A stretch of DNA of 64,000 nt from Candidatus Latescibacterota bacterium (GCA_965203805.1 OZ241917.1:384001-448000); one strand, 5' to 3'. Shown: positions 30,453-34,879, numbered from the stretch's first letter. Translations and numbers: made by a program. The notes: generated by a model not told the origin, from the letters alone.

Positions 30453-32015
30453 ATGCGGATGTTTGTCGTTCTGCTGATTCTGTTATCGACCCTGATCGCC
30501 TGCGTTGAAGAGCGCCCCCGAACCCTGGTATTCGGAAGGGGCGGTGATACCGTGGGTCTGGATCCCGCGCTCGAGACAGACGGCGAGTCATTCAAGGTAT
30601 GCGACAATATATACGATAACCTTGTCACGTTTCAGCCGGGAACTACGGAACTGGCGCCGGGTCTCGCGGAAGCGTGGAAGGTTTCGGAAGACCTCAGGAC
30701 GTGGACGTTTCAACTCAGGAAGAACGTGAGGTTCCACGACGGTACCCCGTTCAACGCGGACGCGGTGGTCTTTTCGCTCGCCCGGCAGTTCAGACCCGAC
30801 CATCCGTTTCATCACGTCGAGGGCGCGTATCAGTATTGGAACAGCATGTCGATGAGCGACATTGTCAGCGACGTAAAGAGGGTGGACGACCACACGGTCG
30901 CCATTGAGCTGTCCCGTCCGAATGCGCCGTTTCTGTCGAATCTCGCCATGAATTTCTGTGGCATCGTCAGTCCCTCCGCCGTACGGAAACACGGCGCCGA
31001 CTTTCCCCGGCACCCCGTGGGCACCGGTCCGTTTCGGTTCGTTCAATGGATCAAGGACGACCGTGTGGTGCTGGAGCGATTTGCCGACTACTGGGGCGAT
31101 GCGCCGCAGATCGACCGGTTGATTTTCAGAAGCATTCCGGAAAATTCCGTGCGTCTGATTGCCCTCATCCAGGGTTCGATTGACGGAATGGATCACCTCG
31201 TGCCCGATTTCATCCCGAATATCGAAGGGCATCCGGAGCTTCGGCTTCTGACTCAGCCGGGGATGAACGTGGGGTACCTGGCAATGAACATGGACCGGGC
31301 CCCGTTCCATCTCTTAAAGGTGCGGCGTGCGGTGAACCACGCCATCAACAAACAGGCGCTGGTGGATAATCTGTACCAGGGTCTGGCGCTGCCCGCGGTG
31401 AATCCGATTCCGCCGTCGATGTGGAGCTATCACGAAGGCATCGACGGCTACGCCTACGATCCCGAACGCGCGCGCGAGCTGCTGGAAGACGCCGGATACG
31501 CGGAAGGATTCAAGACGACGCTGTGGGCCATGCCCGTGCCGCGCCCTTATATGCCGCAGCCCAGGAAAATAGCCCAGGCCATCCAGGCCGACCTGCAGGC
31601 GGTGGGTATAGAGGCGGAAATCGTGAGTTACGAATGGGGAACCTATCTGGACAAGGTTTCGCGAGGTCAGCATGATATGGCGCTTCTGGGCTGGACCGGA
31701 GACAACGGCGACCCGGACAACTTTCTTTACGTCCTTCTGGACAAGAGCGCCGCGCAACATCCCGCCAACAACATCGCGTTCTACCGCAGCGACGAACTGC
31801 ATGACGTGCTTGTGCAGGCGCAGAGGGAAGTCGACGTCGACGTCAGGACCGGGCTTTACCGCAAGGCGCAGGAGATCGTCTTCCACGATGCGCCCTGGGC
31901 ACCCCTCGTGCACGCGGCCCAGACCGCCGCTTTCAAGAAGACGGTGACCGGCTTCACCCTGCATCCCACCGGAAGCAAGTGGTTCCAGCACGTTCGTATT
32001 GAGCAGGCGGACTGA
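30453..32015 (+). CDS. dppA: Dipeptide ABC transporter substrate-binding lipoprotein
   Basis: Lipobox LIAC, PGLAE.W, FHDG.PFNA, PVGTGPF, MPVPRPY, GWTGDNGDPDNF. Confidence 0.92.
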   Translation: MRMFVVLLILLSTLIACVEERPRTLVFGRGGDTVGLDPALETDGESFKVCDNIYDNLVTFQPGTTELAPGLAEAWKVSEDLRTWTFQLRKNVRFHDGTPFNADAVVFSLARQFRPDHPFHHVEGAYQYWNSMSMSDIVSDVKRVDDHTVAIELSRPNAPFLSNLAMNFCGIVSPSAVRKHGADFPRHPVGTGPFRFVQWIKDDRVVLERFADYWGDAPQIDRLIFRSIPENSVRLIALIQGSIDGMDHLVPDFIPNIEGHPELRLLTQPGMNVGYLAMNMDRAPFHLLKVRRAVNHAINKQALVDNLYQGLALPAVNPIPPSMWSYHEGIDGYAYDPERARELLEDAGYAEGFKTTLWAMPVPRPYMPQPRKIAQAIQADLQAVGIEAEIVSYEWGTYLDKVSRGQHDMALLGWTGDNGDPDNFLYVLLDKSAAQHPANNIAFYRSDELHDVLVQAQREVDVDVRTGLYRKAQEIVFHDAPWAPLVHAAQTAAFKKTVTGFTLHPTGSKWFQHVRIEQAD

Positions 32016-32089
32016 AGGTGCCGCCGGAAGCCGCCGCCGGAAGCTGCGGAAAACGGCACGATCCTGAACATATCGAGGCCACGCGCGCC

Positions 32090-33103
32090 ATGGGCGTCTA
32101 CATCCTGAAACGGCTGCTTCTGCTGGTCCCCATGTTGCTGGGCATTGTGGTCCTGGTGTTTCTGATGATCCATTTCGTTCCCGGGGATCCGGCGCAGGTG
32201 ATGCTGGGAGAACGCGCGAACGCGGAACAGGTGGCGGAACTGCGAAAGCAGCTGGGGCTTGACAGGGACCTGCATGTCCAGCTGGGTCTGTACCTGGCGG
32301 GATTGCTGCAGGGCGATCTGGGCCGTTCGTTCAAGTCGCACGCGAAAGTCTCCTCCGAGTTGCTGGCCAGGTTTCCCGCGACGCTCGAACTTACGTTGAC
32401 GAGCATGCTGCTTGCCTGCGGCTTCGGGATACTCGCCGGCGTGGTCTCGGCGTCACGAAAGGGGTCCGTCATGGATTATCTCGGCATGACGGCTTCCCTG
32501 GCGGGGCTCTCCATGCCGATTTTCTGGCTGGGTCTGATGGTCATTCTGTTGATGTCGGTCTTTCTCGGGCTGTTTCCCGTTTCCGGACGGCTCAGCACCC
32601 ACCTGTTTATTCCGGAAGTGACCGGGCTCTACCTGATTGACAGTCTGCTGGCGTGGGATTGGCCGGCTTTCGGCGACGCGGCGTGGCATCTCGTGCTGCC
32701 CGGGCTTACGCTGGGCACCGTGCCGATGGCCGTCATTGCGCGCATGACGCGGTCCAGCCTCCTCGACGTGCTGAAAGAAGACTATGTGCGCACGGCGTGG
32801 GCGAAGGGCCTCCCGGAACGAATCGTCATTTTCCGGCACGCCCTCAAGAACGCGTTCATTCCCGTGCTGACCGTGATCAGCCTGCAGTTCGGATTCCTGC
32901 TCGGAGGAGCGGTCATCACGGAGACGATTTTCGCCTGGCCGGGCGTGGGGCGCTGGCTGCTGCTCGCGGTCTATTCGCGGGACTTCAGGGCCGTGCAGGG
33001 CGGGGTTCTGCTGGTTGCGCTGACATTTGCTCTGATCAACCTCGTTGCGGACGTGATGTACGCGTGGCTGGACCCGAGGATCCGACACCGGAGAGGAACG
33101 TGA
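32090..33103 (+). CDS. dppB: Dipeptide ABC transporter permease
   Basis: PGDPA, GDLG.S, DYVRTA.AKG, ETIFAWPG.G. Confidence 0.92.
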   Translation: MGVYILKRLLLLVPMLLGIVVLVFLMIHFVPGDPAQVMLGERANAEQVAELRKQLGLDRDLHVQLGLYLAGLLQGDLGRSFKSHAKVSSELLARFPATLELTLTSMLLACGFGILAGVVSASRKGSVMDYLGMTASLAGLSMPIFWLGLMVILLMSVFLGLFPVSGRLSTHLFIPEVTGLYLIDSLLAWDWPAFGDAAWHLVLPGLTLGTVPMAVIARMTRSSLLDVLKEDYVRTAWAKGLPERIVIFRHALKNAFIPVLTVISLQFGFLLGGAVITETIFAWPGVGRWLLLAVYSRDFRAVQGGVLLVALTFALINLVADVMYAWLDPRIRHRRGT

Positions 33104-34002
33104 ACCGGCCATGCCATACAGGCGCGGGACAGGTTGCGGACGCCGGCGGTCCGCCCGTTCTTTCGGTTTCCGGCTGGGGCGGGCTGTTCTGGAAGCGGCT
33201 CCTCAAGAACCGGCTCGCGGCCGGCGGCGCCGTCCTCCTGTTGGCATTCCTGTTGCTGGCCGTCGCCGCGCCGCTGGTGGCGCCACACGATCCCCTTGCC
33301 CAGAACCTGTACGACCGCCTTCAGCCGCCGTCGCTGTCGAATCCGTTCGGTACGGATGATTTCGGCAGAGACGTATTGAGCCGTGTTATCCACGGCGCCC
33401 GGATATCGCTTCGGGTGGGTGTTTCAGCAGTGCTGATCGCACTGGTCGTGGGCGTTCCGATCGGGCTGGCTTCGGGATACTGGGGCGGTGGCCTGGACCA
33501 GGCGCTGATGCGGGCAATGGACCTGATGTTGGCGTTTCCCAGCATCCTTCTGGCCATTGCCATTGTCGCGATATTGGGACCGGGACTGGAAAACGCGATG
33601 CTGGCCGTCGGAATCGTGGCGGTGCCGCAGTACGCCCGGCTCGTGCGGGCATCGGCGCTGGCCGTGCGCGGGCAGGATTACGTGCAGGCCGTGAGAGCGC
33701 TTGGCGGCGGCGATTTCCGAATCCTGTTTTCTTCGGTTCTCCCGAACTGCCTTACGCCGCTGATCGTTCAGTCCACGCTGGGCCTGGCGACGGCCATACT
33801 CGATGCGGCGGGCCTGAGCTTTCTGGGATTGGGCGCGCAGCCGCCGTTGCCGGAGTGGGGTGCGATGTTGACCGGCGGCCGGGAACTGGTACTGCGTGCG
33901 CCGTGGGTCCTGACCTTTCCCGGCCTCGCCATCTTCCTGACCGTATTGGCCTTTAACCTGGTCGGAGACGGATTGCGGGATGCACTGGATCCACGGTCCT
34001 GA
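33100..34002 (+). CDS. dppC: Dipeptide ABC transporter permease
   Basis: FGTD..GRD, SFLGLGAQPP.PEWG, GDGLRDALDPR. Confidence 0.92.
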   Translation: MNRPCHTGAGQVADAGGPPVLSVSGWGGLFWKRLLKNRLAAGGAVLLLAFLLLAVAAPLVAPHDPLAQNLYDRLQPPSLSNPFGTDDFGRDVLSRVIHGARISLRVGVSAVLIALVVGVPIGLASGYWGGGLDQALMRAMDLMLAFPSILLAIAIVAILGPGLENAMLAVGIVAVPQYARLVRASALAVRGQDYVQAVRALGGGDFRILFSSVLPNCLTPLIVQSTLGLATAILDAAGLSFLGLGAQPPLPEWGAMLTGGRELVLRAPWVLTFPGLAIFLTVLAFNLVGDGLRDALDPRS

Positions 34003-34020
34003 ACCTGCTGGAGAAAGGCT

Positions 34021-34049
34021 TTGACTTCCACGATTCCGTAGCCTATATT
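34021..34049 (+). promoter_or_regulatory. Sigma70-type promoter of the candidate ncRNA
   Basis: TTGACT-17 bp-TATATT. Confidence 0.65.
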
Positions 34050-34055
34050 TTCGCT

Positions 34056-34312
34056 TACACGGAAAGGAGGTGGTCAAATGATCGAATCGACCAGTGGAGG
34101 TGGCTGTAGTTAGGTGCGCTGCCGGGTGCGGGAGAACATCTCGTCTGGTAACGCGCCTGGCGAATCTAAGCAGCCATCGAAAGACAGGCGATCCGTCGTA
34201 CCGACGGGCCCCCGCGATGCGTTTGGGGGCGCCGTGAGATGGAAGCCGTCTCGAGCAATGCGCCGTGGTGAGATGTGGCCGGAGAGCCGGCTCCCGAATC
34301 GCGGCGCATTTT
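34056..34312 (+). ncRNA. Candidate structured RNA containing an 11-codon ORF (34078-34113)
   Basis: Own promoter, several G-U-containing helices, terminal hairpin plus T-run, extended SD GGAAAGGAGGTGGTC. Confidence 0.5.
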
Positions 34313-34333
34313 GCGTTAAATAAGGGTTTGTGC

Positions 34334-34362
34334 TTGACAGAGATAAATGTGTTTTATATCTT
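34334..34362 (+). promoter_or_regulatory. Promoter of the rplM operon
   Basis: TTGACA-17 bp-TATCTT in an AT-rich context. Confidence 0.55.
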
Positions 34363-34444
34363 TTGAGGCTTGACATTGTGCGCAAATGTCGTTGAGAGGA
34401 GGTGAATTCGAAATTGGCGTGCACGTGGACGCCATTCGGATTTT

Positions 34445-34879
34445 ATGAATACGCCGAGCGCGAAAAAGTCCGACGTCGAACGCAGATGGTTTCTGGCTGA
34501 TGCCGAAGGCAAGGTGCTGGGTCGCTTCGCGAGCGAGGTGGCACGGATTCTGATGGGCAAACACAAACCGTTTTATACGCCGCACGTGGATACCGGCGAT
34601 CATGTTATCGTGGTAAACACCGACAAGCTCGTTGTCAAAGGCGCCAACAAACCCGAACAGAAGGTCTATACGAGCTTCAGCGGTTATCCGGGCGGCCTTA
34701 AAACCAAGACACTCAAGCGGGCGCTCGAAACCCAGCCTGTGTTCGTGCTGGAGCATGCCATCCGGGGGATGTTGCCTCGCACAAAGCTGGGTCGCAGGAT
34801 GATTAAGAAGGTCCGGATCTACGCGGGGCCCGATCATCCGCATGAGAGTCAGGTGCCCGAAGCGATCGACCTGATTTGA
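34445..34879 (+). CDS. rplM: 50S ribosomal protein L13
   Basis: LGR.AS, GKHKP.YTPHVDTGD, SGYPGG, GMLP. Confidence 0.98.
   Translation: MNTPSAKKSDVERRWFLADAEGKVLGRFASEVARILMGKHKPFYTPHVDTGDHVIVVNTDKLVVKGANKPEQKVYTSFSGYPGGLKTKTLKRALETQPVFVLEHAIRGMLPRTKLGRRMIKKVRIYAGPDHPHESQVPEAIDLI

Follow-up and report, generated by a model that had tools for sequence, protein, structure and literature searches.

What is the RNA encoded just upstream of rplM in a Candidatus Latescibacterota bacterium, and does it work through the ribosome? We studied 64,000 nucleotides (nt) of this genome (GCA_965203805.1 OZ241917.1:384001-448000), here called the window, and all positions are counted from its first letter. 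The intergenic region between the end of an oligopeptide-permease gene (34002) and the start of rplM (34445) carries a compact RNA unit on the + strand. An earlier note, made from the sequence alone, had marked positions 34021-34312 as an unannotated structured RNA with extended complementarity to the 3' end of the 16S ribosomal RNA and an open reading frame (ORF) of 11 codons. It read this unit as a stand-alone small RNA (sRNA) or micropeptide transcript that might bind 30S subunits, or as a ribosomal-operon attenuator.

Comparison with relatives establishes the gene, its fold, its homology and the conservation of its boxes, ORF and geometry. Judged by these comparisons, the window RNA is the Latescibacterota branch of the Ms_IGR-5 family (RF02471), and a distant and non-actinobacterial relative of that little-studied sRNA. 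Selection seems to keep the docking and transit of a ribosome, not the peptide. We give about an even chance to the reading that the RNA works through the ribosome, as a ribosome-engaging and translation-gated RNA.

Family assignment and distribution

At the gathering scores of 4227 Rfam families, the whole window shows no match. With a relaxed threshold, the sole meaningful match is RF02471, listed as 'Actinobacteria sRNA'. It covers 34057-34222 and the full model (1-184), with 31.5 bits and an E-value of 2.1e-5. The earlier note had called the RNA unannotated and proposed an Rfam scan, including 6S RNA, as a check. Its view stands in part: the RNA lies below the cut-off of 45 bits and 6S RNA gives no match, but the sub-threshold match to RF02471 takes away the novelty of the kind. 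The kind is known, and the window copy differs in its phylum, its sub-cut-off score, its shifted ORF frame and its added 3' domain.

RF02471 has one match each in 51 of 61 related genomes. The family tallies are 20/21 (f1), 30/31 (f2) and 0/8 for two other families of the class. Only one of the 61 relatives reaches the cut-off (46.6 bits), and 50 more are below it. The 14 control genomes give no match at E-values up to 0.01. At E-values up to 1, sub-cut-off matches appear in two of these controls, Caulobacter vibrioides and Thermus thermophilus. A second match in one of the related genomes (G013, locus L156) is without the boxes described below, and we took it as a false positive.

Searching from the other side, we made a covariance model, R1, from 26 actinobacterial sequences only. 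R1 scores the window RNA at 43.6 bits (E-value 1.3e-10, model positions 1-138). A scan for the exact pattern of two boxes, with one genome per species, gave at least 120 loci. Among the matches listed, most are from Actinomycetota. The others belong to Pyrinomonadaceae and Blastocatellia (Acidobacteriota), a Heliobacteriaceae metagenome-assembled genome (MAG), a Syntrophobacter MAG, two Latescibacterota and three Planctomycetota; one of these Latescibacterota loci has an L13 protein 97.9% identical to that of the window. R1 matches 91 of the 94 loci tried; of these 94, 16 came from the 50 Latescibacterota loci and 78 from the 120 pattern loci listed.

In an even sample of the window's phylum, R1 finds the RNA in 51 of 151 genomes, a count that includes the window's own genome. 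The family tallies, from which that genome is absent, are 17/18 (f1), 29/30 (f2) and 4/102 (other families). In Actinomycetota, 52 of 121 evenly sampled genomes have it, or 47 of 116 without five unpublished genomes. Both surveys are lower bounds because strict filters were used. Nearly all genomes with the RNA have a single R1 match; the Syntrophobacter MAG (G159) and one actinomycetotal genome (G181) have two.

The three loci missed by R1 are those of Planctomycetota (L081, L094, L147), and they were omitted from the family counts. Their unit is shorter; it shares the first box and also has an 11-codon ORF, a GAGGTGGCTG...CAGCCAC hairpin and a terminator. In 3/3 loci this unit is directly 5' of a DAHP synthase gene. 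It may represent a leader of its own kind or a branch that has diverged strongly.

Other RNA classes were also considered. Ribosomal-protein leader families of Rfam (L13 and others) have no match in the window at the gathering score or at E-values up to 10. ARAGORN finds no tRNA or tmRNA in the window. 6S RNA (RF00013) has no match in the window at the gathering score, nor in the genome at E-values up to 0.01. The SRP RNA of this genome is elsewhere (C1:1215405-1215505). The earlier note had seen no RNase P, SRP or tmRNA signature, and the Rfam and ARAGORN scans of the window agree.

Fold and covariation

The small RNA extends over 34057-34312 (+), about 255 nt from a conserved 5' ACAC to a T-run (34309-34312). 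Folded as a single strand, it reaches -126.5 kcal/mol (z = -4.6), a value matched by none of 200 shuffles. We aligned 50 distinct full-length Latescibacterota sequences and counted the pairs on the RNAalifold consensus. Standard pairs occupy 96.1% of 3332 cells. Changes on both sides are seen in 25 of 67 pairs, against 5-9 when the partners are slid by 1-3 columns, and no shuffle attains the observed values. The 5' half of the molecule (helices P1, P2 and P3) is almost invariant in sequence within Latescibacterota. Most of the compensatory changes are held by the 3' hairpin domain (9/12 and 3/4 pairs in its helices 6 and 7) and by the terminator (11/18 pairs in helix 8).

Across phyla, we compared 91 sequences in an alignment guided by R1. 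In this alignment, which is fitted to the model for P1-P3 and has P0 outside the model, P1-P3 are 87.2% paired, against 22-52% with slid partners. An alignment made with MAFFT only (A1) was too poor in P1 and P3, with 12 pairs recovered, and the model-guided one was used instead. A heuristic assignment of the P2 partner placed 14 of 150 sequences wrongly and was given up.

Helix P0 (34058-34096, +) pairs CAC at 34058-60 with GTG at 34094-96. It encloses P1 and the first box complementary to the 16S tail, SD1, named after the Shine-Dalgarno (SD) sequence. Across phyla, P0 is formed by a 5' CAC(N) with (N)GTG just 5' of the second box (SD2). It is 96.5% paired over the 91 sequences, with 53 cells changed on both sides. 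Its three positions exchange pair types (AU 65, GC 16, CG 7; CG 80, AU 5, GC 4; GC 40, AU 9, UA 8, CG 4). With P0, the Ms_IGR-5 core gains a 5' helix that was previously unmodelled.

Hairpin P1 (34071-34093, +) is made of TGGTC and GACCA (34071-75 with 34089-93), and it presents the ATG (34078-80) in its loop. All of its cells are paired in the 50 Latescibacterota sequences; across phyla the value is 78.8%, and 3 of 5 pairs changed on both sides. Helix P2 (34099-34178, +) joins 34099-34107 with 34170-34178. It is 98.4% paired in the 50 relatives and 96.5% across phyla, with exchange between GC, GU and AU. P2 encloses the inner hairpin P3 (about 34109-34161, +), where 6 of the 7 pairs of the base change on both sides across phyla, and a conserved unpaired joiner (GAATCTAA, 34162-34169, +).

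Following P2, the 3' domain (34182-34251, +) is a long irregular hairpin specific to the Latescibacterota branch. TCCGTC pairs there with GATGGA and AGAC with GTCT, and helices 6 and 7 are 96.3% and 96.5% paired. In the part of the actinobacterial set inspected by eye, no counterpart of this domain was seen, and P2 is directly followed by a terminal GC-rich hairpin. The gene ends with an intrinsic terminator (34257-34312, +). Its arms (34257-69 and 34298-310) form a long stem with an inner hairpin, followed by TTTT; helix 8 is 94.2% paired. The relatives have runs of 5-8 T. A simple terminator scan missed the one in the window because its loop is longer than 8 nt. Between the stop codon of the mini-ORF and the terminator there are about 145 nt of structured RNA. 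A 69-amino-acid ORF at 34114-34323, starting after SD2, was considered and rejected: by eye, it is not conserved and ends within a few codons in relatives.

The earlier note had proposed a homologue search and covariation analysis, and most of its drawing is borne out by the relatives. This includes the promoter, the near-complement of the 16S 3' end, the ORF with its AUG inside the TGGTC/GACCA hairpin, the helix that we call P2, the inner hairpin (placed by the note at 34111-34159), the terminal stem with its T-run and a separate rplM promoter. On the other hand, two elements of the 3' part are not supported. In place of a GGCG/CGCC multibranch, covariation favours the single hairpin of 34182-34251. 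A GAGATGG/CCGTCTC hairpin is 76.9% paired, with 2 of 7 pairs changed on both sides, against 96.3% for the long-range alternative; it is possible in the window's genus and unconserved. More precisely, in this genus (34193-34252) GAGATGG can pair with the upstream TCCGTC, which is conserved, or with the downstream CCGTCTC. These two options represent a possible alternative fold in the 3' domain.

Boxes complementary to the 16S tail

All 15 nt of SD1 (GGAAAGGAGGTGGTC, 34061-34075, +) can pair with the 3' tail of the 16S ribosomal RNA. The single 16S gene of the genome ends in ...GGATCACCTCCTTTCT, and the complementarity consists of 13 Watson-Crick and 2 G-U pairs. SD1 is 5-9 nt from the predicted 5' end. 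The 12-mer AAGGAGGTGGTC has a single occurrence in the 5.87-Mb genome.

SD2, the second GGAGGTGG box (34096-34103, +), lies 30 nt (10 codons) downstream of the first, and the stop comes 10 nt later. In the window, the ATG is 7 nt from SD1 and the last sense codon is 7 nt from SD2, each taken as the codon in the P site. Since SD2 comes exactly 10 codons after SD1, a terminating ribosome would have the same geometry to SD2 as an initiating one to SD1. The 30-nt spacing is present in 24 of 31 Latescibacterota loci. The other seven were unscored because a GGAGGTGA variant of the second box is unmatched by the exact-word search.

The two boxes differ in their predicted exposure. Partition-function calculations on the window RNA give an unpaired probability of 0.82 for AAAGGAGG of SD1 and of 0.35 for SD2. 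The same order, with SD1 the more open box, is predicted for 45 of the 50 Latescibacterota sequences and for 88 of the 91 cross-phylum sequences.

The mini-ORF and its conservation

The mini-ORF MIESTSGGGCS* (34078-34113, +) has 11 codons and a TAG stop, and it starts in the loop of P1. We examined its conservation in 170 sequences, namely the 50 from Latescibacterota and the 120 pattern matches listed. In 162 of them an ORF runs from the P1 loop through SD2, with ATG (106), TTG (38) or GTG (18) as start. The other eight, all of Acidimicrobiia type, have CTG in the same frame instead. The ORF is 11-13 codons long, or up to 15 if it starts at CTG. The 162 stops are TAG (141), TGA (14) and TAA (7), and in 158 the stop is found at the base of P3, 14-15 nt past the G of GAGGTG. 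Counting distinct sequences, the ORF is present in 146 of 154, against 30% after shuffling the stretch between the boxes, a contrast that the relatedness of the sequences inflates.

In contrast with its presence, the frame of the ORF is not fixed. Relative to the conserved GAGGTG, 107 sequences use frame 0, 52 use frame 1 (Latescibacterota) and 3 use frame 2. The peptides end in ...REVA[AV][RSG] in Actinomycetota and in ...TSGG[GD]C[RS] in Latescibacterota; given the difference in frame, they are unrelated. Within the 50 Latescibacterota sequences, codons 2-4 vary freely, and hardly any nucleotide change is seen in codons 5-11, also at third positions. The two amino acid changes seen there track RNA pairing or position. 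One of them, Gly/Asp, covaries with its P2 partner (GC 35, GU 10, AU 5). An ORF that is always kept, but in different frames and with invariant synonymous sites, points to selection on the RNA and on ribosome transit rather than on the peptide.

Expression evidence

Contigs of metatranscriptome libraries from three studies cover the window RNA. Those of X2, more than 99% identical, extend over 34020-34159, 34130-34255 and 34242-34416, and the last one bridges the terminator and the rplM promoter. A contig of X3 covers 34073-34267, and one of X7 (232 nt) covers 34057-34282. In X3, the word depth is 28.9 for the RNA contig against 2.9 and 4.9 for the flanking ones, although it is a poor measure of level.

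Previous works mention actinobacterial members in passing. In the passages concerned, the RF02471 RNA is RNA-seq validated in Streptomyces lividans (PMC8079986) and appears as an sRNA transcription unit in Streptomyces avermitilis (PMC8780764). Homologues of MS_IGR-5 in Mycobacterium abscessus and Mycobacterium smegmatis are reported with ribosome-protected reads (PMC4974804), and Ms_IGR-5 overlaps the detected ncMSMEG15794c (PMC10454040).

Promoters and genomic context

A sigma-70-type promoter-like site is present at 34021-34049 (+), with TTGACT at 34021-26, a 17-nt spacer and TATATT at 34044-49. The conserved ACAC (34057) is 7 nt 3' of it. Two promoter-like sites occur in the 1-kb region, against 0.4 expected from shuffles. 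The arrangement TTGACT-17-TATA[TC]T, 6-7 nt before ACAC, is kept in 49 of the 50 Latescibacterota loci, and the 50th is truncated at the edge of a contig. rplM has a separate promoter-like site (34334-34362) between the RNA and the gene, and it is also conserved in relatives.

In 45 of the 50 Latescibacterota loci (29/31 and 16/19), the RNA has rplM-rpsI on its 3' side within about 0.15-0.25 kb; the other five have no rplM nearby. Among the 120 pattern matches listed, only two have rplM within the fetched stretch, both themselves Latescibacterota. In this phylum, the RNA stands beside rplM-rpsI-rpsB-tsf-frr. On its 5' side, oppC is the neighbour in family f1 and in some genera of f2, and the window RNA lies between oppC and rplM. 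According to a Pfam scan, the ORFs around the RNA in 20 loci are unrelated genes, sometimes convergent, that differ between phyla; in a Mycobacterium locus the gene 3' of the RNA is convergent. As the neighbours vary between phyla and the link to rplM is confined to Latescibacterota, we read the RNA as a stand-alone gene and its adjacency to rplM as a lineage feature. This agrees with the first reading of the earlier note, as do the RNA's own promoter, the covarying terminator and the RNA-library contigs.

Genes for peptide uptake recur beside the RNA. In Latescibacterota, an Opp-type ABC permease operon (30453-34002 in the window) ends just upstream. In two Acidobacteriota loci (L102 and L123), a gene for an OPT-family oligopeptide transporter is 3' of the RNA. 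This recurrence may be due to chance.

The leader of rplM has features of its own. A strong SD-like box, GAGAGGAGGTGA (34394-34405), is about 40 nt 5' of the rplM ATG (34445), and a GGCGT...ACGCC hairpin (34416-34433) stands between them; the region 34394-34447 has no good SD near the ATG. The same layout is seen in six relatives (L003, L026, L027, L028, L159 and L169), and in one genus (g6) the box is immediately before the ATG. As read from the sequence, box and hairpin might act as an SD bridged by the hairpin, or else as a site of L13 autoregulation. An apparent upstream ORF of 28 codons in this leader is not conserved and is better read as the distal SD box and hairpin.

Proposed mode of action and alternatives

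The proposed course, from 30S binding and translation in this organism to a switch and a downstream output, would be as follows. P0 and P1 would frame an unpaired box able to pair with the whole single-stranded 16S 3' tail. Binding of 30S subunits fits this anatomy, the 15-nt box being predicted as unpaired. A docked 30S subunit would start the 11-codon frame at the ATG in the P1 loop, 7 nt 3' of the box. Movement of the ribosome would require the melting of P0, of the P1 3' arm, of the P2 5' strand and of the P3 base, and the ribosome would terminate at the stop placed on the P2/P3 junction. There, the anti-SD could re-pair with SD2. The open form would free the 3' strand of P2 and the conserved joiner. 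The RNA would thus toggle with ribosome engagement, as a translation-gated switch and a sensor of that engagement.

A bolder version has, in our view, a small chance of being right. It would make the RNA a phylum-spanning riboregulator that mimics the start of an mRNA, captures a 30S subunit by its full anti-SD tail, forces a short round of translation and hands the anti-SD to the second box, at the stop codon. Its conformation, lifetime or occupancy would then report or set the capacity in free subunits, termination or recycling. It would be 'a 6S RNA for the ribosome'.

The same 5' end could serve other purposes. The molecule may be a base-pairing or protein-binding sRNA in which the 5' SD and the mini-ORF only load a protective ribosome, with the effector in the joiner, the 3' strand of P2 or the 3' domain. 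Stabilisers of this sort, called STAB-SD, are described for cry3A and the Bacillus subtilis hbs mRNA (PMC4113751, PMC5737220) as 5' SD-like sequences that pair with the 16S 3' end, bind the 30S subunit or the ribosome and block 5'-3' decay by RNase J1. The short distance of SD1 from the predicted 5' end (5-9 nt) and the existence of a conserved unpaired joiner (GAATCTAA and relatives) agree with this idea. Nevertheless, the description in PMC4113751 presents STAB-SD as not directing initiation, and here a start and a frame are found in all 170 sequences, CTG counted. The genome has no match above the cut-off to the RNase J family TIGR00649 (42.7 bits against 400). RNAduplex pairing between the sRNA and the rplM leader in 12 species, compared with shuffled leaders, gives z values from -1.9 to +1.8 and no support. 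The changes in the 3' domain are covarying ones, the behaviour of a scaffold and not of a seed. We consider this explanation unlikely. A decoy for ribosomes or 30S subunits seems quite unlikely too. Here the RNA would titrate subunits or park a ribosome that cycles between SD1 and SD2, as an analogue of 6S RNA and Ms1 for translation. The 15-nt complementarity, the strong consensus promoter and the two identical boxes, set 10 codons apart and each 7 nt from its P-site codon, suit such a role, and so does the depth of the X3 contig (28.9 against 2.9 and 4.9), poor as this measure is. However, the RNA is mostly single-copy, SD2 is predicted as paired in the ground state, and stoichiometric titration would need very high levels, which nothing here indicates.

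The two remaining readings come from the earlier note, and the data speak against both. In the attenuator reading, the RNA would be a cis-acting leader of the rplM-rpsI operon that senses ribosome availability through its leader ORF. It is favoured by the proximity of rplM-rpsI in 45 of the 50 Latescibacterota loci and by the RNA-library contig (34242-34416) that spans the terminator and the rplM promoter. But rplM has its own conserved promoter in between and the linkage exists only in Latescibacterota, which makes attenuation unlikely. Five of the 50 loci lack rplM nearby, only two of the pattern matches listed have it, and the downstream gene in Mycobacterium is convergent. Moreover, some 145 nt of structured RNA intervene between stop codon and terminator, and no Rfam ribosomal-leader family matches in the window. 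Taken together, we rate it as very unlikely. Least probable of all is a gene for an 11-residue micropeptide. The SD is excellent, the spacing of 7 nt and the ATG are suitable, the ORF is kept in all relatives, and the C-terminal residues are conserved within each phylum (TSGG[GD]C[RS] in Latescibacterota, (T)REVA.. in Actinomycetota). Against this, the conserved nucleotides are read in different frames (107 sequences against 52), and the third positions of codons 6-10 are invariant over 50 genomes whose L13 identity is 65-100%. The change from G to D covaries with its P2 partner, and codons 2-4 vary freely.

The reading of the RNA as ribosome-engaging and translation-gated has its own difficulties. 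The relatives are not independent, and the shuffle controls therefore overstate significance. The pattern behind the 120 sequences required both boxes, so their invariance in that set is built in; the 50 Latescibacterota sequences and the Rfam consensus alone escape this bias. Pairing in P1 (GC 72, AU 4) constrains the GGTC of the 15-nt box as well, and any complementarity past about 11 nt may simply follow from this pairing. The window RNA does not reach the curated score of RF02471 (31.5 against 45 bits). The contigs place the RNA in RNA libraries but cannot prove transcription, strand, ends or level, and one of them begins at 34020, upstream of the predicted RNA start. The literature search on the Ms_IGR-5 family, with supplementary tables outside it, found expression and annotation mentions only and no functional study. 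Nor did we find an experiment on 30S binding, a switch or a phenotype for any family member.

Significance

RF02471 is much wider than its listing as an actinobacterial sRNA. It reaches an order of Latescibacterota, where 46 of the 48 genomes sampled from two families have it, as well as Acidobacteriota and other phyla. The conserved design is directed at the ribosome: it combines a maximal SD with a mini-ORF that is obligatory in any frame and with a second SD at an initiation-like distance from the stop. The cross-phylum spread, P0 and the frame-independence of the ORF were not found in the Rfam model or in the papers searched. An anonymous sRNA thus becomes a concrete and testable hypothesis of an RNA that acts on, or senses, the translation machinery, and the family has cultivable models in M. 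smegmatis, Streptomyces and Corynebacterium. If the design only stabilises the RNA, it would still be a clean case of translation-dependent sRNA stabilisation.

Comparison with known systems

The closest known system is Ms_IGR-5 itself, whose IGR-5 of M. smegmatis corresponds to ncMSMEG15794c. The window RNA shares with it the 5' ACAC, the extended SD box, the hairpin with the start codon, the GAGGTGRCTG box paired with CAGYCAYC, and the inner hairpin with the stop codon at its base. Both have a conserved AAT-rich joiner, their own promoter and terminator, and usually one copy. P0, P1, P2 and the base of P3 are shared with compensatory changes. On the other hand, the host is a member of Latescibacterota and not of Actinobacteria, with matches also in Acidobacteriota and in the Heliobacteriaceae and Syntrophobacter MAGs. 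The mini-ORF of the window is one base out of register and gives an unrelated peptide, and the distance from SD1 to the start is 7 nt instead of 10-12. The window RNA also has an extra 3' hairpin domain of 70 nt, and its gene lies between oppC and rplM.

6S RNA and Ms1 are mimics that hold RNA polymerase. The likeness is in the idea of a stable structured RNA that imitates the natural nucleic-acid substrate of a core machine. However, the target of the window RNA would be the ribosome, and there is no similarity in sequence or fold. In dual-function sRNAs and leader-peptide attenuators, a regulatory RNA contains a short translated frame, and the position of the ribosome alters the pairing. The window RNA resembles them in its short frame within a structured RNA. 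It differs from them because the peptide of the Ms_IGR-5 family is unconserved, with no regulatory codons and no conserved downstream gene, and because SD2 is inside the ORF before the stop, not before a second cistron. Finally, SD1 is like a STAB-SD in its place near the 5' end and in its complementarity to the 16S 3' end. A STAB-SD is part of an mRNA leader, whereas the window transcript carries a conserved start and mini-ORF and no other gene.

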